A stretch of 64,000 nucleotides of DNA from assembly GCA_964016885.1 (NCBI GenBank), contig OZ024756.1, positions 19,034,001 through 19,098,000 of the forward strand, read 5' to 3'. Numbering within the stretch: position 1 is the first letter of the stretch; each line of letters opens with the position of its first letter. A program made the translations under genes and the position numbers. Shown piece after piece: positions 532 through 60,352 of the stretch. The DNA is from Eledone cirrhosa (taxonomy: Eukaryota). The notes under the pieces are model-generated. The model did no database searches and had not been told where the DNA came from. It was given only the letters and a program-made list of their open reading frames with translations.

Positions 532-1013
532 TAAAATATATAAAGTATAATCGGTTTCGATGTATTAGTAAAATTCATCTTATCAAATGTTGAGTATTAC
601 AATTAAAAAGAATTAATAAGAATTAAAAACTAAAAATTAAAGATTTAAAATTAAGTGTTGAGGCAAGTTTTTTTCATCTTCCTTGTTGGGAAGGAGACTG
701 GAAAAATGAAATCTTGTATATATAGAGAGAGGTGTAGTTATATATATATATGTATAATACACACATATATATATACATATCAAATATTAAGCAAGCAAAC
801 CAATCAAAGAGAAGAGATAAGTGATTAGTTAAGAAGATTACAAGCCAGTAGAGAGAGGGTTAGAGTGCTCGATGTGTATAGATTGCAAGACGAGTGAACA
901 AAGCAAGTAAATCGAAGAAAATATGTCTAGCAAAATTATTATAAGCAGAGCTAAATAGCATGAATTAAATGTCAGAGAAAACAACAATAAACTTTTTAAT
1001 ACATTTATTTACA

Positions 1014-1135
1014 AGCTGACAACTTGTTTCAGACACTAAATCATCAATTTGTACATTGAGGATATAAATACCGATCCAAAAATCGAAACTCGTACAGTGA
1101 AAATAAATCCGTGATTTAGTGCCCTCATCAGAGCC
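1014..1135 (-). ncRNA. Type I hammerhead ribozyme motif with long stem II
   Basis: Minus strand: ggct-CTGATGA-gggcactaaatca..tgatttagtgtct-GAAAC-aagtt-GTC-agct, followed by AATAAA. Confidence 0.75.
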
Positions 1136-1539
1136 AAAAGTAAAGATGAAAATATATTAATTCAAAAACAAAAACATATCACCGATGTGAAGATCCTACA
1201 GTACAGGCTTTACTTGGATAGGAATAGTCCACATGTTAAAAACCATTACTATGTCCATGTTCATGTTGGTTGGATTCAAATGTGACTGGACGAGTAATTG
1301 CTAACAGGGTTTTTGATCCCACTTAGATTCCATTAGTTTAATTTATTATCTCCCCCCCCCCCCCCCATATTTTATTTTAAAAAATTTTTTATTATGTGTT
1401 CTCCACCCATGCATCAGACTTTTAACTAATTTCTTCCTCCCCTATCTAATCCAAACCTTACTTATTCCAGATTTTACCTTATCCTCTCCCATCTTAAATT
1501 GAAGGGAAGAGTGACAGTGATATAAAACTTTTCCAGTCT

Positions 1540-2030
1540 CAGGAATGGTCCATAGAAGGGATTGATAGCCTCTGCTATCTAGGTGACTTAGTGGAGAAGG
1601 GCCTCTGAGAGCATAATAGCTAGAATAAGGATAGGATGGAAAAAGTTTAGAGAGCTACACCCACTGTTGACCACAAAAGGTTTCTCCCTATGTACAAAAA
1701 GGAGGTCAGTATGATGCCTGTGTGATGCGTGGTAGTGAAACATGGGCTGAGACTGCAGAAGACATGCGTAGACTGGAGAGAAATGAAGCAGCTATGCTTT
1801 GTTGGATGTGCAATGTAAGTCTGAGAGAAAAGCAGATGAGCTGAGGGAAAAGCTGGGTTTAAGGGAAATCTGAGATGGTCTGCAAGAGAGAAAACTGTGT
1901 TGGTATGAAAATGTGATGTGCATGGATGATGATCACTGGGTAAAGAATTGCCAGGAAATGTCAATGGAAGGAACCTACAGTAGGGGTGGACCAAGAAAGA
2001 CCTGAATAGTGGTGGTAAGAGCTGACCTTG
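1540..2030 (+). mobile_element. Degenerate RTE LINE 3' fragment
   Basis: Reads [37 protein letters not shown], matching the C-terminus of the 37502-40030 ORF. Confidence 0.75.
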
Positions 2031-2101
2031 AAATATGTATTTTTCATAGATATTATGCATTTTTGTATGTGTACAAATTACTGTTTTTCTCAAAATCTCT
2101 C

Positions 2102-2235
<134 letters not shown>

Positions 2236-2629
2236 GGAGGCACATGGCTTAGTGATTAGAGCATTGGCCTTGCAATTGAAAGGTTGTGAGTTCAATTCTC
2301 AGACCGGGTGATGTGTTGTTTCCTTGAGCAAGACACTTTATTTCACATTGCTCCAGTTTACTCAGCTGTAGAAATGAGATGATAGGGACTGGGGTCCATT
2401 ATCATTCCACTGCAAAGTGGTTGTGGAGGTGCCACGGCAAAAAAGCACCCAGCCCACACTGTAAAGTGGTCGTGGAGGTGCCATGGCAAAAAAGCACCCA
2501 GCACTCACTGTAAATGAGGTTGGTGTTAGGAAGGGCATCCAGTTGTAGAAATCAAGCCAGAATCAGTTCCCGTCCCACCCTTGCAAGCAGGGAAAAAGCG
2601 GACATAAAATGATGATGATGATGATGATG
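2236..2629 (+). mobile_element. tRNA-derived SINE family A, full copy (others: 4699-5133+, 5996-6385+, 9462-9799+, 17342-17676-, 58884-59291-; partial or variant at 2868-3063, 17700-17880, 19350-19465, 22456-22778, 33230-33583)
   Basis: A box TGGCTTAGTG(G/A) and B box GAGTTCAATTC; central tccttgagcaagacactttatttcacattgctcc; 3' part shared with the RTE 3' UTR; (GAT)n tail. Confidence 0.9.
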
Positions 2630-3935
2630 ATATATATATATTTGTTGAAGTCTTTGTGGTTTAGTGGTAAGACATGAGACTAGGGAATATCGTGGTTGGA
2701 TTTCGAATCAAGGTATTAAATATATATATATATACTAGCTGGCCCGTCCGGTTGGCGCCCAGCTACCATTGACGTGTTCTACGGCATCTATATATATATA
2801 TAAATATATATATAGCTGACATACCTAGCTTCACTTGGATAAACAGACAATAAGCCGATTACTGGGTGCTTTTTTTCCATGGCGCCTACACGTCCACTTT
2901 ACAATGTGAGTGCTGGGTGCTTTTTTGCCGTGGCACCTCCACAAGCACTTTGCAGTAGAATGATAGGGACCCCAGTCCCTATCATCTCATTTCTACAGCT
3001 GAGTAAACTGTAGCAATGTGAAATAAAGTGTCTTGCTCAAGGAAACAATACATCACCCGGTCTGAGAATATATCATCATCATCATCATCTTCGTTTAACG
3101 TCCATATTCCACGCTTGCATGGGTTTGGATGGGAGTTTTCCCACTTGAGGCAAGAGTGGTTGTCTTGCTTGCATAGGACTGTCTGGCGGGTTTTCTACGG
3201 CTGGATGCCCTTCCTAACACCAACCACATTTACAGTGTGGAACTGGGAGGTTTTTACCGTGTTGCCTACACGGCCACATTACAGCGTGGACTGTGTGTTT
3301 TTTTGTCGTGACACCTACACGACCTCATTTGTTTCGGGCTGGATGTTGTGGTACCAACATAACTTTACATTGAAAGGGTTGGTGTGGATGGGGTGGGGGT
3401 AGTGGGACGGGGGTGTATTTTGTTAGAGGTGCCTACTGACTGTAGTAGGTTTCACTTTGCACTTAGGTAAGGCGGGTCTTCTCTATTACTGTGTAACGCC
3501 AAAGATCTCGGTCCAGTGACATTGTCTTGGAGAGGTGTATATATATACAGAAAGGTTGAAATCTAACCTGGACCATATCATATTGATTAAAATTGATATA
3601 ATCAATAAAAATCTCAGATAGGTTTCTGGGACTGCTGGAATTATTGATGCTCTGGATAAAGAAGCACATCTATCATACATAATATATATGTTTTTATACC
3701 TTAAATTTGTATATAACAGTTGCAAATTCTTTATTTGTTAGCTGATCACACTGTGACTAATATTTTGCACCTCTTTCTAGCGGAAATGACATCCAGCTTT
3801 GTTTATATCTGCCAACAAGAGTTAAACGTTGTTACACCATGCTGTCTATGGTCTTGGCATTACTCGTAGATCCTGACAGATATAGATAGGTATCTTGTAC
3901 TGTATACTCTATTGCAAATTTATTCAAAGATGTAA

Positions 3936-4064
3936 ATTTCTCTGATGATTGATTCACATCTCCCATAACTTTACTAAATTCGATAGTTGGTGATTGATGA
4001 TCGATCAGTTAGATCGATTTTAAGTTGTGGTTCTTTGAATCATGAAATAGTGCTATAAGGAAAT
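3936..4064 (+). ncRNA. Type I hammerhead ribozyme motif with long stem II
   Basis: atttct-CTGATGA(3942)-t-tgattca..tgaatca-t-GAAA(4044)-TAGTGCTA-TA-aggaaat; near-palindromic stem III. Confidence 0.7.
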
Positions 4065-6385
4065 AAGAACTTTTTCGACCTTGAGAAAAATAAGGGATTG
4101 TCTGCATTGGCAATTAACAAGCATAAACAGTTTCAAGAATGAAATAAACTAGTTTAAAATGAGAGAAAAAGATGAGAAAGTCTAAGAGAGAGATTTTCTG
4201 ATGGTACCTACTGAATAGATCAAGGATAATGAGGAGAGGATGAGGAATACTAAAGTAAGAGAAGCTGTTCTATAAGGGAGACTGACTTTGATAGTAAACA
4301 TTACAATAATTAATGGTATACATACATCTGTACCACCTGAGTCATGGCTGGATGTCTAGAGAGAGAGAAATAAAATAAGGAAGATTAGCTTAACTTGGGA
4401 GCAATTTCTTCTAATTTTGATATATAATATCATTTATGGTGTCTCTGATATCAGAGTTTCACCAGATATTTGGGTGGTATCGGTAGGGTGGTGGATTGGC
4501 TGTAGAATCGGTAGAACGTTAGACAACATGCTTTACAGCATAGAGTTACGTCCTTTTACATTCTGAGTTCAAATCCCGCTGAGGTAAGCTTTGCCTTTCA
4601 TCCTAACAGGGAGTCGATAAAATAAAGTACCAGTCAACATATTTAGTGTGCATATGGATATTATACGCAAATATATATGCATATAGATATGATATATGGA
4701 GACACATGGCTTAGTGGTTAGAGCATTGGCCTTGCAATCGAAAGGTTGTGAGTTCAATTCTCAGACCGGATGATGTGTTGTTTCCTTGAGCAAGACATTT
4801 ATTTCACATTGCTCCAGTTTACTCAGCTGTAGAAATGAGATGATAGGGACTGGGGTCCCTATCATTCCACTGCAAAGTGGTCGTGGAGGTGCCACGACAA
4901 AAAGCACCCAGCCTACATTGTAAAGTGGTCGTGTAAGAGAGATACCAAAAAAGCACCCAGTGCACACTGTAAATGTGGTTGGTGTTAGGAAGGGCATCCA
5001 GCTGTAGAAAACCAGCCAGAAACAGTCCTATATGAGCAAGACACAGTCACCCGACCCAACTTTCCTTTAAATGGGACAAACCCATCTAACCGATGCTAGC
5101 ATGGAAGATAGACGTTAAACGATGATGATGATAATGAAATTGAAAAGTAAATTGTGTTCATTAGTGGCTTGCCTAACTGAGGTAACTGGTGATGCTTGAG
5201 AGGGCGCTTGGTTATTCCAGCGCATCAGCCTCGCCTTCACCTGAAGTAACGCTACAAGTATGCTGGCTTGCCTCAAAAATTATTAGAGAGGTTTCCCAGT
5301 GCTCCTCGCGATATTGTTAACTTTTGTTCTGGCAGCAGTTTGTTTGTCCACCCTTTTTGCCTGCCTTTTGTTAAATGTAGTCCTAGATGTATGCGTTACC
5401 TAATATACGTTTTTTTTCCTTTCCGTTTTCTTTCTTTTTCTTATGCTTGTAAAACAATAAAATAAAAATACATTTGCAACGGTATTTACACAACTGTGAA
5501 TAAAATCATAATTGACAATAAGCACAGAAATTGAACAAAGACTGTGTTACACTGTCTTCTATAATCAGTAAAGTAATCCATGATACATTTAAAAAAGACA
5601 ATATTATATTTACATTACAGCGAAATGTTATGATATTGATATAACGGACGCTAACGGAAGTGTTGACATTTAAAAGTTTTAACAGAAGTTAATCTTGAAA
5701 TAAGCAATACATTATATATAAGAATATTTATGTTTAATTAAGAGCTACAAAATTTAGTAGATAAATTACATAATATTCATTCATGATTTATTCAAAGTAA
5801 TCCAACTTATTTTAATAACGTGTTCAGAAACAATATCCCTGACACAGTCTCACAATTCTCCAATCATTATATATTAGATTGTTATTATTATTATTATTAG
5901 TAATAGTAGTAGTAGTAGTAGTAGTAGTAGTGATGGTGCCAGTAAAGATGGTGGTGGTTGTAGCTGCAGCAGCAACACCCACTATATATATATATGAGGC
6001 ACATGGCTTAGTGGTTTGAGCATTGGCCTTGCAAGCGAAAGGATGTGAGTTCAATTCTCAGACCAGGTGATGTGTTGTTTCCTTGAAAGACACTTTATTT
6101 CACATTGCTCCAGTTTGCTCAGCTGTAGAAATGAGATGATAGGGACTTGGGTCCCTATCATTCCACTGCAAAGTGCTCGTGGAGGTGCCACGGCAAAAAA
6201 GCAGCCGGCACTCACTGTAAAGTGGACGACTAGGCGCCACGGAAAAAAAGCACCCAGCACTCACTGTAAATGAGGTTGGTGTTAGGGAGGGCATCCAGCT
6301 GTAGAAATCAAGCCAGAATCAGTTCCCGTCCCACCCTTGCAAGCAGGGAAAAGCGTACATAGAAAAAAAAAAATGAAATGATGAG

Positions 6386-6418
<33 letters not shown>

Positions 6419-6755
6419 TACTGTAGTACAAGTTTGGTAGAAATATCCAAGGGTAAGAGCACTCAGTCCATAGGACGAGTTAAGTATAATTAGTTACAAC
6501 AGTGACATATACAGGTACTTAAGTTTTGTTGGGTTATACACCCCAACTCATTCAACCCGTTACATAAACAAAGATGGCTACCTCCACAAAAGACTTTGTA
6601 ACTATATATATATATATATTATATATAATGTAGGAGGTGAGTTTTATTGTAGTACAATAAAGCAATGCAGATATCGGATAAGAAGCACTCTACAGTTTGT
6701 AGGACTGGAGTATACATAATATAAGATCAAAAGATGGTTAAAGGAGTTCCATGTA

Positions 6756-6822
6756 TTTTATTATGCGCATTTCAAAAACAAACATCATCATGCAATAATA
6801 TCTGTGTTTTCATCAGATAAAA
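6756..6822 (-). ncRNA. Minimal type I hammerhead ribozyme, left arm of the same palindrome
   Basis: Reverse complement of 6920-6986 with one substitution in stem II; the core is intact. Confidence 0.78.
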
Positions 6823-6919
6823 CAGGAGAACATGATATGAAGGCTAAAAAACACTTGTGGATTGATTTAAAATTGCACTATCCACAAGTGTTTTTTAGCC
6901 TTCATATCATGTTCTCCTG

Positions 6920-6986
6920 TTTTATCTGATGAAAACACAAATATTATTGCATGATGATGTTTGTTTTTGAAATGCGCATAATAAAA
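6920..6986 (+). ncRNA. Minimal type I hammerhead ribozyme, right arm of a palindrome
   Basis: ttttat-CTGATGA(6926)-aaacacaaata..tgtttgttttt-GAAA(6969)-TGCGCA-TA-ataaaa; palindromic stem III loop. Confidence 0.8.
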
Positions 6987-7513
6987 TACATGGAACTCCT
7001 TTAACCATCTTTTGATCTTATATTATATTATATATATATAGTTATGTAATAAACAACATAAGATAATTATTCATGCCTAAAGAAAATTAATTATCACAGG
7101 AATGCTTCCACTTAAAATAAAATTTTGCCGGAGATAGATAAGCAAAATTTAATAAGCAAGGGGTGGGGGTGAGATAACAGCGGGGGTGGGGGTGAGATAA
7201 CAGCGGGGGTGGAGGGTGGAAAAAAATCTGAAAAATTGATAAGTGGAGGAGACGAGGGGACGTTTATTCAAGTTCATGACCCAAGAGTAGTTACAGATAT
7301 TGTGGTGTGGTGTTAGTCAAGGGACATTACTGCAGGCATCTTATTCAAGTGGAAGTAGAAAAAGAGAAGAAACCGAAACCAAAGGACAAGCAATTTGTGT
7401 AGGAGAGATTCTCACCTTATAAAAGATAGCCATGCAAGCAGACATCATTGAACATTCCATATAAATTTGAAAGCATGCACAAAACCTACACCCTATCCAC
7501 TATCAAATAATAA

Positions 7514-10472: not shown

Positions 10473-31243
<20,771 letters not shown>

Positions 31244-34879: not shown

Positions 34880-37150
34880 TCGAAAGCCACAGAACTGTAA
34901 CACCGACTTCCAACCGGTAGAAACAATAGTTTATAACTTTGACTATTAATCCGTATGGTGAGCAAATGGGGTCCCTCGTGCTGGCCTCCCCACAGCCCTG
35001 GCGGACAGGATGGAGAAGGCGTTTCCCTGGAAGAGCCATTCCAACTCACGAGGCTCACACCTGTGGCTGGCCAGCTCAGCGCCTATGGCGGTGAGTAGGG
35101 AGGTAGCCCTAGGGCCAAGGACACCAGAAGTCTCCACTGCTAGGGTCACGACCGTAGACCTGTCGGAGAGCGACCGGTACTTGGAGAGTTTGGCCTCCTC
35201 AGCTCGACGTGCAGCAGAACCTGGGTTAGTTGCAGACTGTACCAGGTTGCAGCTGGAGAAAGTGTTGGTGCAAGTGGCATCCCAGACGAGGGGTTTGCCA
35301 CCGCGGAACGGGAAGATGGTCATACCGTCTGGCCTTTTGCCGTCCCCTCGGTCCAGCCCCACCGGCTCGAGCTGGGAGGGGAAGCCTGCAGTGTCCAAGC
35401 CATGCTTAATGACCTCATTGAGGGCAGCATGGCGTGGAAGGCGATCGGCACTGTGGCGACAGGAAAGTGGGTGGAGTCTGAAAGAGTCCACGGTGGATCG
35501 ACAGCGACATCTATGTGGCTCGCAGATCCGAAGTCCAAGCCTCAAAGGAAATGCCGATGCGCAGGCTATCGTTATCCAGCAGCGTGCCAGTGGAGAAGGA
35601 GGGCAAGGCATGGAGCCAGGCACCACTGTGGGGTTTGGAGGCTGCGTGAAAACAGGCAAAGGCGGTGCTGGTCGAGCTGGCGTGTGAGCCTGTCTGAGGC
35701 CTGGCTGCTCTGGATGGCATCCCATACGCTTTGCGGGGTCAGGGCTCCATATGGCAAGTAGGCCAGCAGGTAGACAGAGGGGGCTCGGCTGAGGCAGGCA
35801 TTGAGCAGATGGTCCCGGCGTATGCAGTTAAAAGCATTCCTCATGTCAAGCTTGACAATGAGGGGCCTGGAGTCCCTGGATGCCGGTTCCGGTGGGCAGC
35901 TGTTGAAGAACTGCTTGGTTGCATTTGCAGTCCCCTCACAGCCACCGGACATGCCAGTTGCACCGGATTGAACTCCTCACCCAGTTCAGGTGTCATGGAC
36001 CTGCAGACCACCTTAGCAGCCAGCCTCCGGAAGACATTGCCCACAGCTATGGGGCGTATACTACCCTCTTTCTTTCTGAGAGCAGTCAGGCTAGCCGAAA
36101 AAAAGAGGCCCCAGGCGTGAGGATCCAGGGCGCCATAGATAAGCCTATTGGTGAGTGCCACAATTGCACTCAGAAGGCGGAAACTCCTTGAGGTGACCTG
36201 GTCAGAAACCATCAGCACCTCCACTGCTGCTAGCTGGGAAGGACTTGATGGCAGACATGATGTCTGCGTCGGAAGCCACAAGGAGCAGGTGGGGATCGGG
36301 TGGGGGTATGGGTCGGATGCCAGCAGGTGGCTCAGGGTGCTTGAGTCGCAGGGCAGCCAGGACCTCCTCGGTAGGTTGGAGGACAGTGTCCTCTGAGGCA
36401 ACCACTCTGACTACCGCCTTGACATCACCCATGATAAGTTTAGCATTTACACGGTCACGCAAACGCTTGGTGCTGGCCTCAGGGGTGGAGGATTGGAGGC
36501 ACCCAAGAGCAGGGGTTGTGGCGTCCTTCAGCATGCTTGGAATGGGCGCTTGCCCAAAGGACGAAACATTGGCCTTGACAAAGGGTGCTGTCGACATGCT
36601 GCCTCAGTCAGCGCCAGAGCTGGGGAGGCCGAGGGTGAGTGGGACGAAATAGAAGAGGCGCTCCCAGTCGCTGGCTCGATTGGAGTCCAGAGCACTCTCA
36701 ATCGAGGAAGTGAGGGCATTGGCTACTGGCACCCGGGCCGCTTTCGGGATCCTGAGTGGGATCTTCCGGAGCCGCCTGAGCTGAGCAATGTTGACCAGTG
36801 AGGCTTGGGCATCCGGCAAGCTTGCTGTCTCATCCGGTGGAGTGCCAGACGGTGATGGCTGGGCAGACGATGGTGGCTGGGCAGACGTAGGGAAGAGACA
36901 GTTTCTGCATCTCCACGCTGCGAGGGCACTGGATGAGTCAAGCCAACACAGGTGAGGTGGTGGAAGCAGCCGCACTCCGAACAGTTCCGGCCCTCTTTCG
37001 TCTGTTCGTGCTGCAGATGTCGACTGATAGAGGATGGAGCGTGGAGCCGGGGACTGGGGCACCAAGCGCATCAGGGGTGAGTGGCTGGTTGTCACCACCC
37101 TAGGTGCTAGGCACAACTGCACGTGGGTGAAAGGGAAAGTGTTGGTATGA
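34880..37150 (-). mobile_element. Decayed CRE-like non-LTR retrotransposon (RT + restriction-like endonuclease), frameshifted and internally deleted
   Basis: GC-rich island. Fragments: LTALRKKEGSIRPIAVGNVFRRLAAK, VKLDMRNAFNCIRRD, CRC..H..SC zinc knuckle, RHAALNEVI..EP..DGKRPDG..WDAT (RLE). The central RT YxDD region is missing near 35735. Confidence 0.8.
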
Positions 37151-37200: not shown

Positions 37201-39972
37201 TCATCATCATCATCATCATCACCGTTTTACGTCCGTTCTTCCACGCTAGCATGGGTTAGACGGGTTGTCCTGTTGTGGGCAGTGTCTGGTCGGCTGACCA
37301 TGCCTTGCTCATACAGGAACTGATCTGGCTTGATTTCTACAGCTGGATGCCCTTCCTAACACCAACCTCATTTACAGTGAGTGCTGGGTGCTTTTTCGTG
37401 GCGCCTACACGTCCACTTTACAGTGTGGGCTGGGTGCTTTTTTGCCGTGGCACCTCCACGACCACCTTGCGGTGGGGGGGGGGGCATATTGTTTATATGC
37501 TTCAGCATGTACCCATGGGAGGTCGGGTACCCTGTATTACTGCGTGACGCCAGAAGTCACGGTCGTGTGTCATTGACTTTGAGAGGTGTAGTTGGGTAAG
37601 GTCGGCTTTTATCACCTCATCCCAAGTCATCTTGGGTCTCCCCACTCCGCGGTTTCCATCAACTTCTAGTGCTCTGCACCTTTTTATGCAGCTGTCATCC
37701 TTCATACGCATCACATGTCCATACCAGCGTAACCGCCTCTCCTGCACGCAGCATTTGATTCCTCTTATGCTCAGTCTCTCTCTCAATTCATTTATGCTTT
37801 GTCGTTCACGTATATTACTGTTACACATCCATCGGAGCATGCAGGCTTCGTTTCTCTCTAATCTACGTAAGTCTTCCACCTTCAGCGCCCAGGTCTCACT
37901 ACCATGCAACATCGCTGTTCGGATACACGCATCATACAGTCTGCCTTTCATTCTGAGGGAGAAGCCTTTTGCAGCTAGCAGTGGTAGTAGTTCCCTAAAC
38001 TTCTTCCATCCCGTTCTTACCCTAGTTATTGTACTTTCTGAGCACCCACCTCCGTTGCTAATTCGGTCACCTAGGTAGCAGAAGCTGTCTACTGTTTCTA
38101 CAGGGCCCTCCCAGAGATTGGTGGTACTTGTTTCCTGTGGCTGTTTGCTTGCTGTTTCAGCACAGCTGCTGCATGTGAATCCTACATTCTTAATTAAGCT
38201 TCCTGAGATCCCGCTACATCTCTTGTGTACCCATTGTTTGCATTTGGGGCAAAGAATGGAGTTCCTACCTACACCTTTCCTACATACTGAGCAAGGCCAT
38301 TTCCCTGAGGGGATCTGGGTTCTGTTTTCTCGTCTACTTATAAGGACCTTAGTCTTTGTCATGTTGACTTTGAGGCCCTTTCTCTCTAGTCCCTGCTTCC
38401 AGGTTTGGAATTTATTCTCTAGTTCTACCATAGATTCAGCTATGAGTGCGAGGTCATCAGCATACAGGAGTTCCCATGGGCATCCGGTCTTAAACTCCTC
38501 CGTTATTGCCTGCAGGACTATGATGAACAGGAGAGGGCTAAGAACAGAGCCCTGGTGGACCCCAACCTGTACGCTAAATTCCTCGCTATACTCATTGCCA
38601 ATCCTAACTTTGCTGACTGCTCCCCTATACATGGCTTGTACCGCTTTCACAAGCCATTCATCTACTCCTAGTTTTCTAAGAGCCCACCAGATTACTGCAC
38701 GTGGAACTCTGTCAAAGGCTTTCTCAAGGTCGACAAATGCCAAGTAGAGTGGCTTACTTTTAGCTAGGTACTTTTCCTGTAATTGCCTCACAAGGAAGAG
38801 CGCATCAGTGGTGCCTTTCCCTGGAACAAACCCAAATTGCATCTCGTCTATATTCACCCGGTCCCTAATCAGCTGTGCTATAACTCTTTCTGTTACTTTC
38901 ATGACCTGGTCCATCAACTTTATACCTCTATAGTTTCCTCTATCTAGTGCATCGCCTTTACCTTTGTAGCAGTTGACAATGATGCTACTGCACCAATCTT
39001 TTGGTATGGCCCCCTCTAGTATTACCTGGTTAACGATACGTGTGGTTATAGTGTGACCTACAGACCCAGATGCCTTCAGCATCTCGGCAGCTATACCCGA
39101 TGGACCGGTTGCCTTCCCTATCTTCATATCTCTGATTGCCTTACTTACTACGCTGCCGCTGACTTGTACTGCTGGTCCCTCTATAGGGTCTACGTGGGGT
39201 AGGGTCTCTTCTTCCCATGCATTCTCCTCATTTAGTAATCTATCATAATGACTCTTCCATGCATCTTTCTTCTCAGCACTTGTGAGGGCAAGCTCACCTT
39301 TATCATTCCGGATACACTTCTCTCCAATGACATCACAACTATCTCTGACACACTGCCTCGCAATCTTGAATACCTCCTGTTTCTGGTCCTCACGTTGTAA
39401 AACATGCTTGAATTTTCTATCCTCTGCTTCCCTCCTAGCTAAGTATACTTGTCGCCTAGCTTCCCTCTTGGTCTCTATGTAATGTACCCTGCTCCCCCCG
39501 TTCTTCCATTCTTTCCATGCCTGTCTCTTGGCCTTGACTGCTTCATCTACCTTATTGTTCCACCACCAAGTCACTCTCCTCCTGCTTGAGGTCTTACTCC
39601 AGCCACAAACCTCATCCGTCGCCTCTAGTAAGTTATTTTTTAGGAACTCCCAGTTCTCTTCTACGTTAAATGTCTCTATCTGTTCTTCTTTACTGTCGTA
39701 GGCGTTGAGTAAAATATCTTTAAATCTGTTACTGGTTGAGGGGACTTTCAGCTTCCAGATCTTTCTTCTCCAGGTTGGCCTCTGTTTCAGGGCTCGTCTA
39801 GTTCTGACCGTGAGGTCGCTGACAACTAAGCTATGTTGGGATGTACATTCCTCACTAGGGAAGGCTTTTGTGTTTACGACCGTCCATCTGTCACGTCCTC
39901 TGATGAGGATAAAATCTAACTGACTAGAGTGCTCCCCTGATCTATAGGTGATCAGGTGGTTGTCGGGTTTTT
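37201..39972 (-). mobile_element. RTE-clade LINE, 5'-truncated, uninterrupted ORF (APE C-terminus, RT, PHD-like Cys/His finger), 3' UTR ending in (GAT)n
   Basis: ORF 37502-40030 contains SQLDFIL..SQHSLV (APE end), NYRGIKL, QFGF, FVDLEKAFDRV, GVHQGSVLSPLLF, LYADD, FCYLG and RRLRWYGHV. The tail reads tcatcatc on plus at 37201. Confidence 0.93.
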
Positions 39973-40934
39973 TAAAAGAGAAGGGGGGCTTGCATGGAGG
40001 GAGACACACACAAAAGTAGAAAGTTAGCAAATAAATAAATGAATGAATGGATGAATGTACAAAAAGAAAACAGGGGGTTATTCCCAGCGGAATGACCCAA
40101 AGGTTGTTATTCTCACTGATGCTGGAGTTGGCTTCCTCTTGTTAATGGTGGTGGTAGTGATTGCTGGTAAGATATTGGTGTATACACATATGTTGTTGTT
40201 GTTATTGTCACTGCCGCTGTCATATCCTTCCTCTTGTTAATGGTAGTGGTAGTTGATACTGATCCCTATTTCGGCTGCCAGGCTGGTTGCTGGGTCTCGA
40301 ATGCCTTCTTTCACCCAAGATGCGGTGTCGTTATTGTCTCTGTTGCTGTCGTTGCCTTCTTCTTGGTAATGGTAGTGATAATTGTTGGTACTACCTATTT
40401 CGGCTGTCAAGCTGGCTGCTGAATCTATGGCGTTATTATAGAAGACTCCCACCACCACCGCTATTTCAATGGTAAATTTTCTTTCTTCAGATTTTTCGTG
40501 TGCTGTTCACTAATTTAACCTTCAAGATTAAACCACTGGCCTTGTACCTATGAAAGAAACAATTATTTGTCGAGAGGACCCTTCAGTCGTGTCAAGAACA
40601 TGACAGCCCCACTAGTGCTTCGTGATCCACACAATAAACGCACCCAGTACATGCTGTAAAGTGGTTGGTGGTAGGAAGAACATACAGCCGTAGAAAGCCT
40701 GCCAAAGGTTTGAGGAGATCCTTTAGTTGTGTCAAGAACATCACAACTTCCTTCGTGTTTGGTGATCCACACGATAAACGCATCCAGTAGGCGCTGTAAA
40801 GTGGCTGGTGATAGGAAGAACAGGGAACTTTCTAGGCACAAATCCCATGGATGGTCATTCGTAACCGAAGTGGGTCTTTATATATATAGTAATAATATTT
40901 ACGAAGACCAAAATCCGTAGAAGGCTTGATATGT

Positions 40935-40993
<59 letters not shown>

Positions 40994-41224
40994 CATTCCA
41001 GCCTTTAACAACGAAAGCGGAGAGTAAAATGAAAAAAAAGGTGCCCCAAAACGGGGAGAAATGGGGAGATTTTACATAATAAAAACGATACTCATTTTTA
41101 CAAGGCCCCGTCGGACAGGGAGAATTGACAGGTCTGTTTATATATAAAAGTATTATAAACCCGTAGAACAAATATTTATTATTAGTACAGATTAAAGTTT
41201 AAGCAAAGAATTGCTGCTTTCACC

Positions 41225-41364
41225 CTTTTACGGGATCTTGTTTCAGAAGATCCCATAATAGGGTGAAAGCACACACACACACATATATATCAAATCAAAA
41301 GGTCGAGTTAAAAACTCTCAATAATTCCTCGGACACATATATGTGTATTTCTCTCCTTACTATG

Positions 41365-41403
<39 letters not shown>

Positions 41404-41576
41404 TTATAAAGAGTCGGGACCCGACGGGCTGAGTTCTTGTCGTTTCAACGGGTAGGTCCCGACTCTTTATAATTTAACCACACTATATAATATAATCATA
41501 CTACCCCAAGTACTCTGTTGAGTAATGGTCTAACCAGTTTCAAACTGAATCCACCCTTATATATATATTATATATA

Positions 41577-41616
<40 letters not shown>

Positions 41617-42134
41617 CATGAGAAGAAAGAGGAATACTGCGTGGTTGCACATGGGTTACATATTATAAAATTAGTCCCTCGTCAGTGATTTGCCAACCAT
41701 CATTGGTATTTCATCGCATTAAAAATCATATACCCCAGGTTGGTGCGAGCAATAACTAAAAAAAGCTATTGGGACAAGTGAGTCGCGTAAAGCGAGTGAG
41801 ACAAGTAAACAACATAGAAGGAAAAGCAAACCGAAGATAGGAAAAAAACAAGCAACATGATATATATATATATATATATTTGATATGTATGTATCATGTT
41901 GCTTGTTTTTTTCCTATCTTCGGTTTGCTTTTCCTTCTATGTTGTTTACTTGTCTCACTCGCTTTACGCGACTCACTTGTCCCAATAGCTTTTTTTAGTT
42001 ATTGCTCGCACCAACCTGGGGTATATGATTTTTAATGCGATGAAATACCAATGATGGTTGGCAAATCACTGACGAGGGACTAATTTTATAATATGTAACC
42101 CATGTGCAACCACGCAGTATTCCTCTTTCTTCTC

Positions 42135-42189
<55 letters not shown>

Positions 42190-42344
42190 AGGGTGGATTC
42201 AGTTTGAAACTGGTTAGACCATTACTCAACAGAGTACTTGGGGTAGTATGATTATATTATATAGTGTGGTTAAATTATAAAGAGTCGGGACCTACCCGTT
42301 GAAACGACAAGAACTCAGCCCGTCGGGTCCCGACTCTTTATAAC

Positions 42345-42377
<33 letters not shown>

Positions 42378-42516
42378 ACATAGTAAGGAGAGAAATACAC
42401 ATATATGTGTCCGAGGAATTATTGAGAGTTTTTAACTCGACCTTTTGATTTGATATATATGTGTGTGTGTGCTTTCACCCTATTATGGGATCTTCTGAAA
42501 CAAGATCCCGTAAAAG
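41225..42516. repeat. Near-perfect large palindrome (~630 bp arms, ~30 bp TA-rich spacer)
   Basis: 41225-41862 is the reverse complement of 41892-42516, apart from microsatellite length changes and a few substitutions. Confidence 0.95.
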
Positions 42517-42567
42517 AGCTTCCTGATGATTTCTCACGAATGAAACAGTTCTAGTCCTGTAGAAGCT
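42517..42567 (+). ncRNA. Type I hammerhead ribozyme motif
   Basis: agcttc-CTGATGA(42523)-tttc tcac gaat-GAAAC-ag ttctagtc ct-GTA-gaagct; stem I is 6 bp perfect. Confidence 0.78.
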
Positions 42568-42890
42568 TTTCTATATTAAAACATTTATACTCTGCTATGT
42601 ATTGAGTACCTTACTTACTGTGGTTAGCCACGATTGAACCCGGAATAACTTATATAATAAAAAAACGGAGTTAAAGACGCGTTAATCCCCTGTAATTTAA
42701 TGAGCTCAACGAGCTCAAGGATTAAGTACGGGGCTCTTCATAATACAGTATATAGAGAATAAAACACAAAAAGGGGTGTTTTCAATTACGAGGGGTAGAG
42801 AACCACTAGAGTGAAGAACATAAAGTCTACGAAAATTACCCCTCGTATTTGAAAACATACCCCCTTTTGTGTTTTCTTCTCTGTATACTG

Positions 42891-42932
<42 letters not shown>

Positions 42933-43563
42933 CACTTATAACGTTTACTGTGCATGTGAAGACGAGATTTTTTGTCTTGAAGATTTATCAAAAGCTTTAG
43001 AATTTGTCAGCATGTACATCTAGGTGTGGTTACCAGACACACACACACACAGACAGCATATAATATACTTTACTTCTCGACACTTTTCGTTGTGTTTTTC
43101 TGACCTAAATGCTAAGATCAATTTAGTGTTTTGGTTTTTTCTAGTCTATTACATCGCCTATGTATAACTCCCGTAAATTCGAAATACAATAAACATAGTA
43201 TATGGTTTTATGTAACGATACTTGGAAACAGAAGCAACACAAAATAACAGCTGTGTTGGGTGTTTTGTTTTGTTGTATTGTTTTTTTGTTATTTTCTTCG
43301 TATTTATAGTTACTTAAATTCAATATATAAGATTAAAATAACGAAAAATCTTCATTAGATGAAAGAATTTCGTAATTTTACTTTCAAAATAATTTCGGTC
43401 AGTAGATTGGGTGTTGTCGAGATTTGGCAAAGCTACAATATTGATATACATACAAATAAATAACGTAGAAAACTGTCATAGAAACTTTTTTTTTAAATCC
43501 CAACTGTAAACTCTGTGTAAAAGTATGTAAAGTATGACATGGTTAACAGGTTAAGATACTTAC

Positions 43564-43875
43564 AGTGGCTTCAAGTGGCTAATGAGTAAATTGCCCCAAT
43601 TTTAGTAATGGTATTAATATTAATATTATTCTTATTATTTTTTACATTCGTTGACACCGTTTACTTTGCCAAGACTACGATTCCCGATTTGAAGAAATTT
43701 TCTGATATGTTATTTGTTATTTTCTGTTTTTATTAACTATAATTTCTTTCTAATCTCGTTCGTTGGTTTGTTTGTTTTTATTGAACGTTATAACTACTGA
43801 AATGTAAATTAATAAAATTATTGTAAATGTCTTCAACATAAACTAATCGTTCTGGTAAGAAGGGACAGATTTTAG
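43564..43875. promoter_or_regulatory. Putative bidirectional promoter / 5' UTR region of copine (-) and IMPACT (+)
   Basis: The copine ATG at 31243 directly follows a splice acceptor, so an upstream exon is needed. A consensus minus-strand donor (GTAAGT) lies at 43563-43558 in repeat-free DNA about 310 bp before the first IMPACT ATG. Confidence 0.45.
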
Positions 43876-46800
43876 ATGTTCACCGCCGGAGTTGACACAA
43901 CATCAACTGTAATGGACGTAATAGAGGATAATTTAACACGGCAGGTTAGTGTTATAAAGTAATTATTGACTCTCACGCCATCAATGTTCAGACTATTAAT
44001 ATTAAACATATTTTATATCTTCGTCTGCTCATAGTGATTTAAACTGAAATGAAGACATCGAACGTAAGTTACCTTCTGAATGTAACAAACTTGTTACGGA
44101 GGAGCCCCTGAGTAGTCGCTCAACCTGCTAGAAATAATAGCCAGACCTTCCTGAAATCACACTCCAACCGTCGTAAATAGAGAAGGATACGGATTCATTA
44201 AACAATGTCACCTCCCTAATATACATAAAATACGGAATGATCACGCCTGGAACGGCGTTCCTTGATCATAAGCCTACTCGATCAGCTGGCACGTGATTAA
44301 AAAACTTTTTACTAATCGTCAATGTTAATTCAATAGTTAGCGGGTGACAGATCAGCAGAATTGGTTGAGCGTCCGATAAAATACCATTGCGGTATTTGTT
44401 TTGGCTCTTTACTTTCTGAGTTCAACTTTACGTCAACTTCACCTTTCATTCTTCCGAGGTCGATGAAATGAAATACTAATCAAATACTAGGGAGAGAAGG
44501 GGTTATTTAATCAACTTTGCTCCTCCCACAGAATTTACTTGCTTTCTGTCGAAATTAGAAATCGATATTTATCATTAGTTTTAAAAATTATATTAAAAAT
44601 AAATTGATTAAAAAAAAAAGAAACTTGGCAGTTATTCGCTTGTATACATGGACCAGAAACTCCTAATCGGGCCGTAGCGGCATCGTAGTAATATGTCTTG
44701 GTCACTTTAAACCTGGCGGAGCTCATCTCCTCTCCAGGACTTATTTATTAAACCGAGATTTTTTACCCTCCTAACTAACTATTCTAGTGTGCCATGTTTT
44801 AGACTCCTTCGCAATTCTATGTTTTTAAACCAGATTTTGTAGATTTAGAATCTACAAAAAGAAATTTGGAAACTTAGGTAGCAATACAAACAAACATCGT
44901 TATTTTTATATTAAATTATGAAAGCTAACTTTAGATTAGATATCATGTTTAAGGTAAATTACCTTTTCAAAGCATTAGTCTTCTTCATCTTCTTCCACTT
45001 ATTCCCGAGAGGGTCGTGGGATCAGAGTACTGAAACACTTCTTCCAGCGGGTCCTGTCAGAAGCAACCATCTCCAACTTCTTGCATTTAATTCAGCCATC
45101 TGCCTTCCACCAATCGTGAACACAACCCTGAGATACTTTAACTTCTCCACCTGCTTCAGTGGAACTCTATTTACATGGAAGGATTAGTCTATTTTTTACT
45201 TGTATTTAGATTGTTGTCTCTTTAGGATGAGAAATATATATAAGGTACAGCACTGGGGGTGTAATCCAGCATCTCTTTTAAGCTGTTGATTCCTGCGTAT
45301 ATTTTACACAGCTACAGTTGCTGTGTCGGATATTTTTCAGTAAAATGACTATTTTTTAAAACAAACATTTAACAACACATATCAGAAAGATTGTCAAACG
45401 TCACATCAATAAACTAGTAACCCCATCTAGCTCTGAAGTTATGAACTGTTGGAAAAGAGTTCAAACATGCTAGGACGACTGGAATGCATACATTTTAGGA
45501 CGAATTATCTCGTCTATGGCACTGAAGAGGTTAATATCGAATACATGAACAATCACTCAAACTGGGAAATTTGCGTTTTGACATCATACATTCTACCCTT
45601 TGCTTGTAGAGACAATCTATTAGTTGTCAACAGGGGTAGTAGCTCCTTAGACTTTTTCCACCCAAAACTTATTCTAGCTATTTTGCTTTCAAAACAATTT
45701 TATATATAGAATGAACCCTTTAGCATTGAAACCGGCTGTATCTGGCCAGAATCCTCTTTCTGTTCAAACTGGCCACTCATACTGATGTTAAGGTATTATT
45801 CTTAACATAAATAATATCAAAATCTCATAGATTCGATATTATGTGAAGTAAAGCCTTTACAGTGAAAATATAACAGTAAATATAGAATAATATAAATGCT
45901 AAAGGGTTAATGTAAAGAATGACGTGTTCATGTACAGAGATGCTATAAAATAACTTATAAAATAGGGTCAAGACCCTTAAAAGACAGAAAAAGAAGTTGT
46001 CATCAGCCAGTATGAGGTATTGAACCCCATATCTCCCAGATACCAGCTTGGGTTAATCGGTGTCTGGAAGATATAGAGTTCAATTTCTCATAGTGGCTGA
46101 TGGCTACTTCTTTTAAAGGTCTTCACCTTATTTTAAAGCATATCTGCACATCATTCTCAGCGCCTCAACGTCCGATCTCTCGGCTATGTATAACTTTATA
46201 TATATATATATATACTGTCATCGTTTTTACATCCATTTTTCCACACTTGCAATGGCTGAGACGGGTCCTTTTCAGCACAGCATCTCTCCTCTCATCACAA
46301 TCCTTTGTCATCTCCTCTGTGAGTCTCAGCAATTTGAGATCAGCTCACCACCTCCACCCAGGTCTTTCATGGTCTACCTCTACTGCAGCTTCCTTCCACT
46401 GGGATGTATATATAAGGGATGGATGATACTTTAGAGTTACCTAGTAATATTTGTTTCTACTTTTTTTTTTAGTAATATTGAAGTTAAAACATGTGTAGAC
46501 ATTAATAAAATGATTTGAAGTACTTTCTTTGTTGTCAATTGATTTAAATATATATAGAGATTTCATCATCCTCATCGTTTTATGTCATTTTTCCATGCTG
46601 GCATGGGTTATATGAGTTGTTCTGTTGTGTGCAATGTTAGGTCAGGTGATCGTGTCTTGCTCCTACAGAACTGATTTTGGCTTGGTTTCTACAGCTGGAT
46701 GCCCTCCTAATGCCAACCTCATTTAAAGTGAGTACTGGGAGCTTTTTGTTGTGACGCTTACACAACCACTTTACAGTGTGGACTGGGTGCTTTTTTGTCG

Positions 46801-57066: not shown

Positions 57067-57437
57067 GTTCATCTACTACAGTGCAGCTGCAACTTCAGTT
57101 GTACTCATTTTATATATATATATATCTTGACATATAACATAATATAATTAATTTATAGTCCATGGAAGAGATTGCAATAAGTCTATAGCAAAAAAAAAAA
57201 AAAAAAAAAAAAAAAGAAAATGGATTCAATACATAATAAAGAGTAAATGTTGATTTAGTAAGGATTCAATACCTTACAATTGTACAAATATTTCAATACA
57301 TTAGAAGCTCTTCAAAAAGGCGTACATTTGAAAAAGTATTGATGTATTGAAACATTTTTACGGTATTCATTTGTGTGTATGTAAATATATATATATAATA
57401 TTAAAATATAAATATTAATAAAATAGATGTTCTTTTG

Positions 57438-57494
57438 ACATTTTATTATACATATTTCGGATGTACAACAGTACGTCCTCATCAGACAAAATAT
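57438..57494 (-). ncRNA. Minimal type I hammerhead ribozyme downstream of SIRT5
   Basis: Minus strand: atattttgt-CTGATGA-ggacgtac tgtt gtacatcc-GAAA-TATGTA-TA-ataaaatgt. Confidence 0.8.
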
Positions 57495-57866
57495 AATGAT
57501 ACATCTATTTTATTAATATTTATATTTTAATATTAATAACTCCGGAAAATTGTTTTTCCGTAGAGTGCTTCCAATCTACTGTAAAACTCATTCTTTGACA
57601 TAATCATTGAATATTGTTTAACATTTTAATGTATATATATATATATATATATATTTATATCTTCACATTTGATGAGTTGTAGTGCACCTGAGCATTGTAC
57701 ACATTTTCACACTCATTATTATTATATCAGAACTTTCATCCTTATGGGGTCGATAAAATAAAGTACCAGTAATACACTGGGGTAATTGCTGGCCTTGTGC
57801 CTAAAGTAGAAACAATTATTATTATATCAGAACTTTCCTGATTTCTAGTCCTCTAGAAGTCATAAC

Positions 57867-59331: not shown

Positions 59332-60352
59332 ATGTATACTCTCTGCACTTAAAAGTTCGAGAATGTGGCTTACATACATTGTTTATTTAAAAGTTAATTT
59401 CAACAAGGACAGAATGTAAATATTTTACAATATATAAAAAGTTCAGTTGTCAACCCATCTCCTTCCAAATACAAAGACCTCTATGTAGTTACTCAGCTTG
59501 CTAGAAATAGAAGCCACGTCTACTCCAAATTGCACACTGCTAGCATAATAGAAAAATAAAGGATGAGGAAGCACTTATGGAATAATGTAGTCCTAAATAA
59601 ACTGCAGCAGGAACTAGGAGCTCATTTGTACACTAACTACAATATCTCTTTGCTCCCTCCCTGTCTATATATTCTCCCACAAGACGGAGTTCTATATGTT
59701 CTCCCACCCTAGCTGTATGTTGTCAATCACAAGACACAGAGCTCTATACATTCTCCCACCCTAGCTGTATGTTCTGTAAATCTCTAGAAATAGAAATAAA
59801 ATAATAGAACCCTCACTGCAACGAATTAGTGGCTGGAGTCTCTTCAGTGTTGAATTCTGCAACTGGGATTCCTCGGTTGGCTAACATTGGTGCATACATG
59901 GCAGCTGGGTACACAATTGATGAAGTACCGACCTGGATAGAGAAAATAATTTATTGACTTAACAACACAGGCATTTTAAGGCCAATTTTCCAATATAAAT
60001 TATATATATATATTTATTTATTTATTATTAGTACAGATTAAAGTTTAACCCTTTAGCCTTTAAACTGGCTGTATCTGACCAGAATTCTCTCACCTCTTTC
60101 TGCTCAAACCGGCTGTAACTGCACACTCATACTGATGTTAAGGTATTATTCTCAAAATAAATGTCACAGCAAAAAAAAGCACCCAGCCCACACTGTAAAT
60201 GAGGTTGGTGTTAGGAAGGGCATCCAGCTGTAGAAATCAAGCCAGAATCAGTTCCTGTTTGAAGTCAAGGTCAGCCGACCGGACACTGCTCACAACAGGA
60301 CAACCCGTCTAACCCATGCTAGCATGGAAGAATGGACGTAAAATGGTGATGA

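Follow-up and report, generated by a model that had tools for sequence, protein, structure and literature searches.

We asked how a palindrome of about 1.3 kb came to be joined directly to a hammerhead-bearing element in a 64,000-nucleotide stretch of Eledone cirrhosa DNA (the window), which is repeat-rich animal DNA with repeats of octopus-like appearance. A sequence-only reading of this stretch had described two arms that turn at a (TA)n spacer, and both blastn and an alignment of the arms bear this out. When 40801–43000 was compared with the whole window, blastn returned one inverted match at 41225–42516 (97.1% over 1306 columns, E = 0), which is also the longest local inverted repeat in a self-comparison of the window. 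The left arm (41225–41862, plus strand) pairs with the right arm (41892–42516, minus strand), and the pairing ends at 41862/41892 as had been claimed. The earlier description of the arm as a mosaic of TA-separated segments also holds, in that the left arm is a chain of short segments with TA and CA microsatellites between them. Aligned over 41225–41860 and 41894–42516, the arms share 622 matches and are distinguished by two base changes and by the lengths of four microsatellites. One change is a substitution at 41402 and the other, at about 41616, adjoins a TA run; in all four of the microsatellite runs that differ, the left arm is the longer.

The spacer (41863–41891) consists of a (TA)n tract that passes into an imperfect run of the ATGT type. 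Watson-Crick pairing reaches 41862/41892 and then continues to 41871/41883 through two G.T positions. Two of the 12 inner pairs are of this kind, a higher density of mismatch than in the arms, where 622 positions hold two changes (Fisher p = 0.002). It is the top strand that reads as G.T at both positions, and this is also the strand that would fold in the fold-back model set out below. The centre of the palindrome folds at −14.2 kcal/mol on the top strand versus −11.8 kcal/mol on the bottom strand, while the short 3′ end alone (41850–41895) folds weakly on both (−3.5 versus −2.8). We read the spacer as the original microsatellite, which would have folded back and primed synthesis. A near-identical run of 14–15 bases beginning TTGATATGTA is found at 40927–40941 and at 41880–41893, where it precedes or ends both of the nearby TA tracts; its presence at both may be chance, or it may be a templated piece at the palindrome centre.

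The right arm ends at 42516, and the next base begins stem I of a type I hammerhead motif (42517–42567, plus strand), exactly where the sequence-only reading had put it. Stem I is formed by 42517–42522 and 42562–42567. The conserved core of CUGAnGA, GAAA and NUH is present with all three helices, as CTGATGA at 42523–42529, GAAA at 42542–42545 and a GUA triplet at 42559–42561, with cleavage predicted after 42561. Stem II is 3 bp long and opened by a T.T, and the short stem III closes a loop that contains the palindrome CTAG. A type I hammerhead descriptor gave seven matches in the window and none in 30 block shuffles, and it missed the hammerhead at 22188, whose stem I is under 5 bp. Rfam returned no hammerhead match in the window at gathering score, the sole match there being a weak tRNA at 6004, and no hammerhead among the 92 matches at E ≤ 10 in 41100–42900. 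Those 92 sub-threshold matches, mostly hairpin models on the palindrome, were set aside. The free fold of 42510–42580 is no better than that of shuffled sequence (z = −0.85). Because there is neither an Rfam match nor an excess of folding over shuffles, the assignment rests on core letters and stems, and self-cleavage is a prediction. Two stem III regions co-fold at −14.8 kcal/mol, a value taken without a shuffle control. A 28-base core pattern had no match in metagenome contigs and none in viral contigs.

The whole element (42517–42649, plus strand) is 133 bp long and consists of the hammerhead and a tail of about 80 bp. An ACTC hairpin had been proposed for this tail; the complementary letters are visible by eye as a TACTC/GAGTA pair (42588–42592 and 42604–42608), but the minimum-energy fold favours other small hairpins. 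The element is followed by a short stretch of TA (42650–42656) that may be the right half of the target microsatellite; at this point other copies continue as (TA)n or (CA)n.

The element belongs to a very abundant family. Region 42380–42750 was aligned at 80% likeness to the contigs of four of eight sequencing runs, leaving out X3 and the RAD runs X6–X8; X1 and X2 come from the same sample, which may also have been the source of the window. Matching contigs numbered 13,394, 13,372, 10,358 and 431 in the four runs, with depth concentrated on 42517–42650. The summed depth in X1 is 1.2–2.3 million over 42523–42561 versus 18.2, from a single contig, over 42380–42405. Taken at face value this ratio would suggest copies of the order of 10^5, but summed depth of contigs is not a copy number. 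Family copies start at 42517–42520, their upstream sequences being unlike one another in 338 X1 contigs (agreement 0.4), and the arm/element junction coincides with this usual 5′ edge. Among the matches listed, family pieces end at about 42625 or at 42640–42648, which is suggestive of two 3′ ends some 20 bp apart (the optional tail of Penelope-like elements, PLEs, is 30–40 bp). In X1 and X4, the loose ends of copies past 42643–42648 continue as TA or CA repeats. Of 37 joints, 15 were listed; 13 of these 15 join opposite strands within the element, and one steps back, by 45 bases. The family is common to organisms A and B and extremely abundant in both.

A second family copy in the window (22106–22314, plus strand) has the usual PLE-type form, its own 5′ part being repeated in inverted orientation at 22106–22178. 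The sequence-only reading had named this copy, at 22184, as a relative, and it is 83% alike to the 42517 element over 141 columns; another relative lies at 19210. The arms of its palindrome (22106–22257) share 61 matches and differ by 10 substitutions. The family carries a type I hammerhead with a short palindromic helix III in a terminal repeat, lies at AT-rich or microsatellite targets and includes head-to-head inverted copies at the 5′ end, a feature absent from the 42517 copy itself. An open reading frame for reverse transcriptase and GIY-YIG endonuclease is absent from the locus, and none was found by a Pfam scan of 300 of the 332 candidate frames of at least 45 aa in the window. The family behaves like a PLE end fragment, and we call it PLE-like because no open reading frame ties it to a PLE here. 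A non-LTR retrozyme was considered and rejected: head-to-tail tandems of 150–450 bp with canonical type I hammerheads were not seen among the joints listed, and the window copies are dispersed singles. PLE hammerheads have been described as type I with a short palindromic helix III, mostly as dispersed singles with some close opposite-strand pairs (Cervera and de la Peña 2014, PMC4209133). The account in PMC4209133 stresses a G10.1–C11.1 pair and a long helix II, whereas stem II here has 3 bp and is opened by a U.U; an axolotl retrozyme family is reported to have a U.U in this position (PMC7229834). For octopus-type genomes we found no published hammerhead report in a search that left most subscription papers outside, and the word "hammerhead" has no occurrence in the main text of PMC13282606.

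Hammerheads also accompany other palindromes in the window. In the other two long ones, at 6716–7026 and 30452–30826, each arm holds an outward-pointing type I hammerhead with a six-base palindromic stem III, and these represent two further families unlike that of 42517. Their arms differ by one change in 147 and by eight in 158, respectively, half of the latter near the centre, where there is also a small tandem duplication; judged by their arms, both palindromes appear young. A looser scan of 12 local inverted repeats found a core-like pattern in six, one of them (53139) doubtful, and none in the other six. Two more type I hammerheads lie on the minus strand, one at 57396–57535 (core at 57485) flanked by a 36-bp inverted pair, and one at 30085–30185 (core at 30171) with a long stem III.

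The mirrored DNA itself is pre-existing flank, as the earlier reading had argued from sequence. In X1, depth over 42380–42405 is five orders of magnitude below that of the element, so the repeat unit does not include the arm. Because of this contrast in depth and the heterogeneous 5′ flanks of other copies, the idea that arm and hammerhead recur together as one unit is contradicted. The left boundary at 41225 falls inside a 57-bp hairpin (41215–41271, z = −10.1) that belongs to an older repeat at 41172–41271 on the minus strand, which by eye contains a degenerate hammerhead and its own short inverted copy. This repeat has relatives at 60019–60048 and at 11719–11788, the latter already noted at about 11725–11772 and now slightly extended; it links both sides of the 41225 boundary. 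Since the left arm continues unbroken into the older repeat, we take the left arm as the original and the right arm as the copy. Organism B covers 42380–42418 at a depth of 32–43, fitting an old flank. The arm contig has a depth of 18.2 in X1 versus 5.2–11.8 for seven other listed X1 pieces, a rough doubling of the kind that two collapsed arms would give, though the indication is weak.

Some segments of the arm look by eye like decayed hammerheads, with CTGACGA at about 42061, GAAA-led pieces near 42302 and 42391, and a CAGAAGA repeat. A relaxed descriptor that allows single core changes gave no matches to them, and they remain by-eye readings; if real, they would make the site an old insertion hotspot. 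Likewise by eye, 41172–41271 and 11719–11788 share a hammerhead with the core CAGAAGA, which may be a decayed family or a core variant.

What can be observed directly is the product, and the steps that gave rise to it are reconstructed from it. The product reads, in order, original arm, microsatellite loop, inverted arm, element and a short TA remnant. Only about six bases of TA lie to the right of the element, and the long tract is found instead at the centre of the palindrome; in a test for target-site-like overlap, both break ends fell within TA repeats. We consider it likely (roughly 60%) that insertion of the element, accompanied by fold-back repair of a host DNA end, made the inverted copy of about 625 bp of flank that is joined to the element. 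A PLE reverse transcriptase–endonuclease supplied in trans would have cut a (TA)n tract, and the 133-nt element would have been reverse-transcribed tail first from the right-hand end. Resection of the left-hand end would leave a 3′ overhang ending in the TA and ATGT repeats, which, to judge by the spacer, could form a fold-back stem of 12 bp, two of its pairs being G.T, and prime its own copying. Synthesis would have halted at 41225, within the older hairpin repeat, after which the new end would have been ligated to that of the cDNA at 42517, the two sharing no clear homology. The hammerhead probably had no catalytic part in these events, being copied intact across its cut site. The earlier claim that insertion drove the flank duplication is upheld in part: the geometry fits a 5′-junction duplication, and the two may have arisen in one event. 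Neither an empty allele nor a bridging record was found among the matches listed.

The same product could have arisen in two steps, with the element landing in (TA)n and a later break in the tract being repaired by host fold-back independently of the element. The element differs from the family majority at at least four sites (42568, 42583, 42627 and 42630, where 78, 74, 84 and 98% of X1 depth carries another letter) while the arms are about 0.3% apart, which would favour an older element and a younger palindrome. Such a history also draws on the fragile (TA)n tract that would have adjoined 42517 and on fold-back inversions at nuclease breaks, which need no retroelement (PMC11724301). However, one near-private change in 133 bases would be expected about one time in five even if everything had happened at once (from 2/622). 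The remaining differences may mark a subfamily, 49 X2 contigs matching back to 42517; the divergence could otherwise reflect homogenisation of the arms by arm-to-arm conversion. Moreover, no TA remnant separates arm and element, the joint falling exactly at stem I. We regard two events as a real but distinctly less probable history, and the sample of events is this one locus. A single event driven by the reverse transcriptase, in which the enzyme jumped at 41225 to the bottom DNA strand or to minus-strand copine pre-mRNA (see below) and copied back to the cut site, would give an identical product and would account for a right arm with the sense of the minus-strand transcript; template jumps and host-DNA capture have been proposed for PLEs (PMC3846280). 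It seems improbable to us: the joint at 42516/42517 shows no clear microhomology, the G.T stem that the top strand forms at the centre is left unexplained, and a template of RNA would need, by coincidence, to end at the cut site.

Ordinary PLE architecture, with arm and hammerhead transposed as a unit through 5′ read-through and the left arm as the usual inverted copy, has clear models in PLE insertions that often have a 5′ inverted copy and can carry host DNA (PMC8557442, PMC3846280) and, in this window, in the forms at 6716–7026, 22106–22257 and 30452–30826. It is largely refuted, and very improbable, given that the repeat outside the left arm runs on into it without a break and that the arm is near single-copy in X1. 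An assembly or read fold-back artefact is the least credible account. Small differences between the arms had been held to argue against it, and the two sites and four microsatellites that differ do so; the right arm also enters different sequence rather than retracing the left flank, and the arm depth is about doubled. The read evidence covers 42380–42750, a region to the right of both the centre and the left boundary. One X1 contig matches 42380–42499 without other letters, none of the 32 pieces listed (there are a further 38,793) bridges 42516/42517, a point in favour of an artefact, and no empty allele appears among the matches listed, the right flank being itself repeated. That flank (42656–42745) is moderately repeated, with depths of 570–5100 in X1 and about 3000 in X5. 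Directly to the right of the locus lies a MITE-like hairpin element (42745–42889, z = −12.8) with CAGT...ACTG ends set between TA.

Insertion with fold-back repair has its closest counterpart in LINE-1 insertions with an inverted genomic duplication on the reciprocal end, primed by TA/AT hairpins (10.1101/2024.12.14.628481, Fig 4A outcome 3, 4D and 4E). As there, an inverted flank copy stands on the 5′ side of the insert and turns at a small TA-type hairpin, and homology-free end-joining is described in that work for a related inversion case. The present insert differs in that it is PLE-like, a fragment of 133 bp that bears a hammerhead and lacks poly(A), and in that it comes from the assembly of a non-human animal; the event is deduced from one allele rather than seen de novo, and a target duplication is unreadable in the microsatellite. 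In yeast, fold-back insertions have been described in which imperfect inverted microhomology at a break end primes self-copying, followed by end-joining; these measure 2–150 bp and arise without a retroelement, whereas the palindrome here copies about 625 bp (PMC11724301). Purified PLE protein has been reported to cut both strands of AT-rich DNA and to insert uncleaved RNA, hammerhead cleavage being dispensable (PMC11167929), and by analogy this two-strand cut and use of uncleaved RNA would fit a two-ended break and an intact hammerhead. PLE insertions are described with an inverted pLTR and tail, a head-to-head palindrome at the 5′ end, a hammerhead in the terminal repeat and AT-rich or microsatellite targets (PMC8557442, PMC3846280). 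The hammerhead, such targets, truncated copies and a head-to-head palindrome are likenesses shared with the present case, but the mirrored DNA here is host flank ending at the start of the element, where it is usually element sequence, and there is no open reading frame. Dualen LINE insertions in Chlamydomonas are accompanied by flank duplications of hundreds of bases (median 900 bp), which lie on both sides like long target-site duplications, whereas the duplication here is inverted and one-sided (PMC9977147). A report of flank-mirroring by PLEs was not found in a search that left most subscription papers and older Penelope work outside. Our preferred reading of the locus is that of a PLE-type equivalent of an outcome already known from retrotransposition repair. 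The LINE-1 precedent, the family's routine self-inversion and the other hammerhead palindromes all lower the surprise, and it is a single-locus footprint, not a new system.

The palindrome likely lies within a gene. Pfam matches identify copine exons on the minus strand (C2 at 29225–29476; Copine at 17175, 13644 and 10473), RWD and UPF0029 exons that belong to a plus-strand IMPACT-like gene with its start codon at 43912, and Sir2 exons near 60.8–62.7 kb. The first coding exon of copine is at about 31070–31230, and a candidate donor motif on the minus strand at 43563 suggests a further 5′ exon. The interval 43564–43920, between this donor and the IMPACT-like start, is the likely shared promoter of the two head-to-head genes. 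The palindrome would then sit in a 12-kb first copine intron, about 0.9–1 kb from the donor. The same presumed intron holds a LINE with reverse transcriptase (37505–40520, minus strand, or 37505–40141 as read from the Pfam scan), whose uninterrupted 879-aa frame has RVT_1 and PHD matches in Pfam and which is probably young. Also on the minus strand, 34946–36650 contains GC-rich broken frames with no Pfam match, which by eye we take to resemble a non-LTR element of the restriction-like-endonuclease kind. A Copine match at 27965–28138 (E = 6e-06) runs along the plus strand, against the direction of the gene, and starts at the profile position where the match of the exon at 17175 also starts; it is possibly an inverted copy of a copine exon.

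A minus-strand transcript through the palindrome would fold as a near-perfect duplex of about 620 bp (−1102.6 kcal/mol), and in copine pre-mRNA this duplex could be a substrate for editing or small-RNA production. The cruciform foreseen by the sequence-only reading, and an effect on the promoter, would be further possible consequences. Being antisense to copine, the hammerhead would not be expected to cut this pre-mRNA.

How PLE integration is completed and how inverted structures form are stated as unresolved in PMC8557442 and PMC11167929. Integration by PLEs can be pictured as leaving two free ends, either of which may fold: the cDNA end would give an element palindrome and the host end a palindrome of host DNA. 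On this speculative and, in our view, rather unlikely reading, a family so abundant and aimed at self-complementary (TA)n would leave host-DNA palindromes as a recurrent genome-wide by-product, seeding long intronic dsRNA and exposing the second-end step of integration. The hammerhead mini-element family is perhaps of greater interest than this one locus. The flank-copying variant, for its part, suggests that the host mended a two-ended break by fold-back, and it can be counted genome-wide from one assembly.
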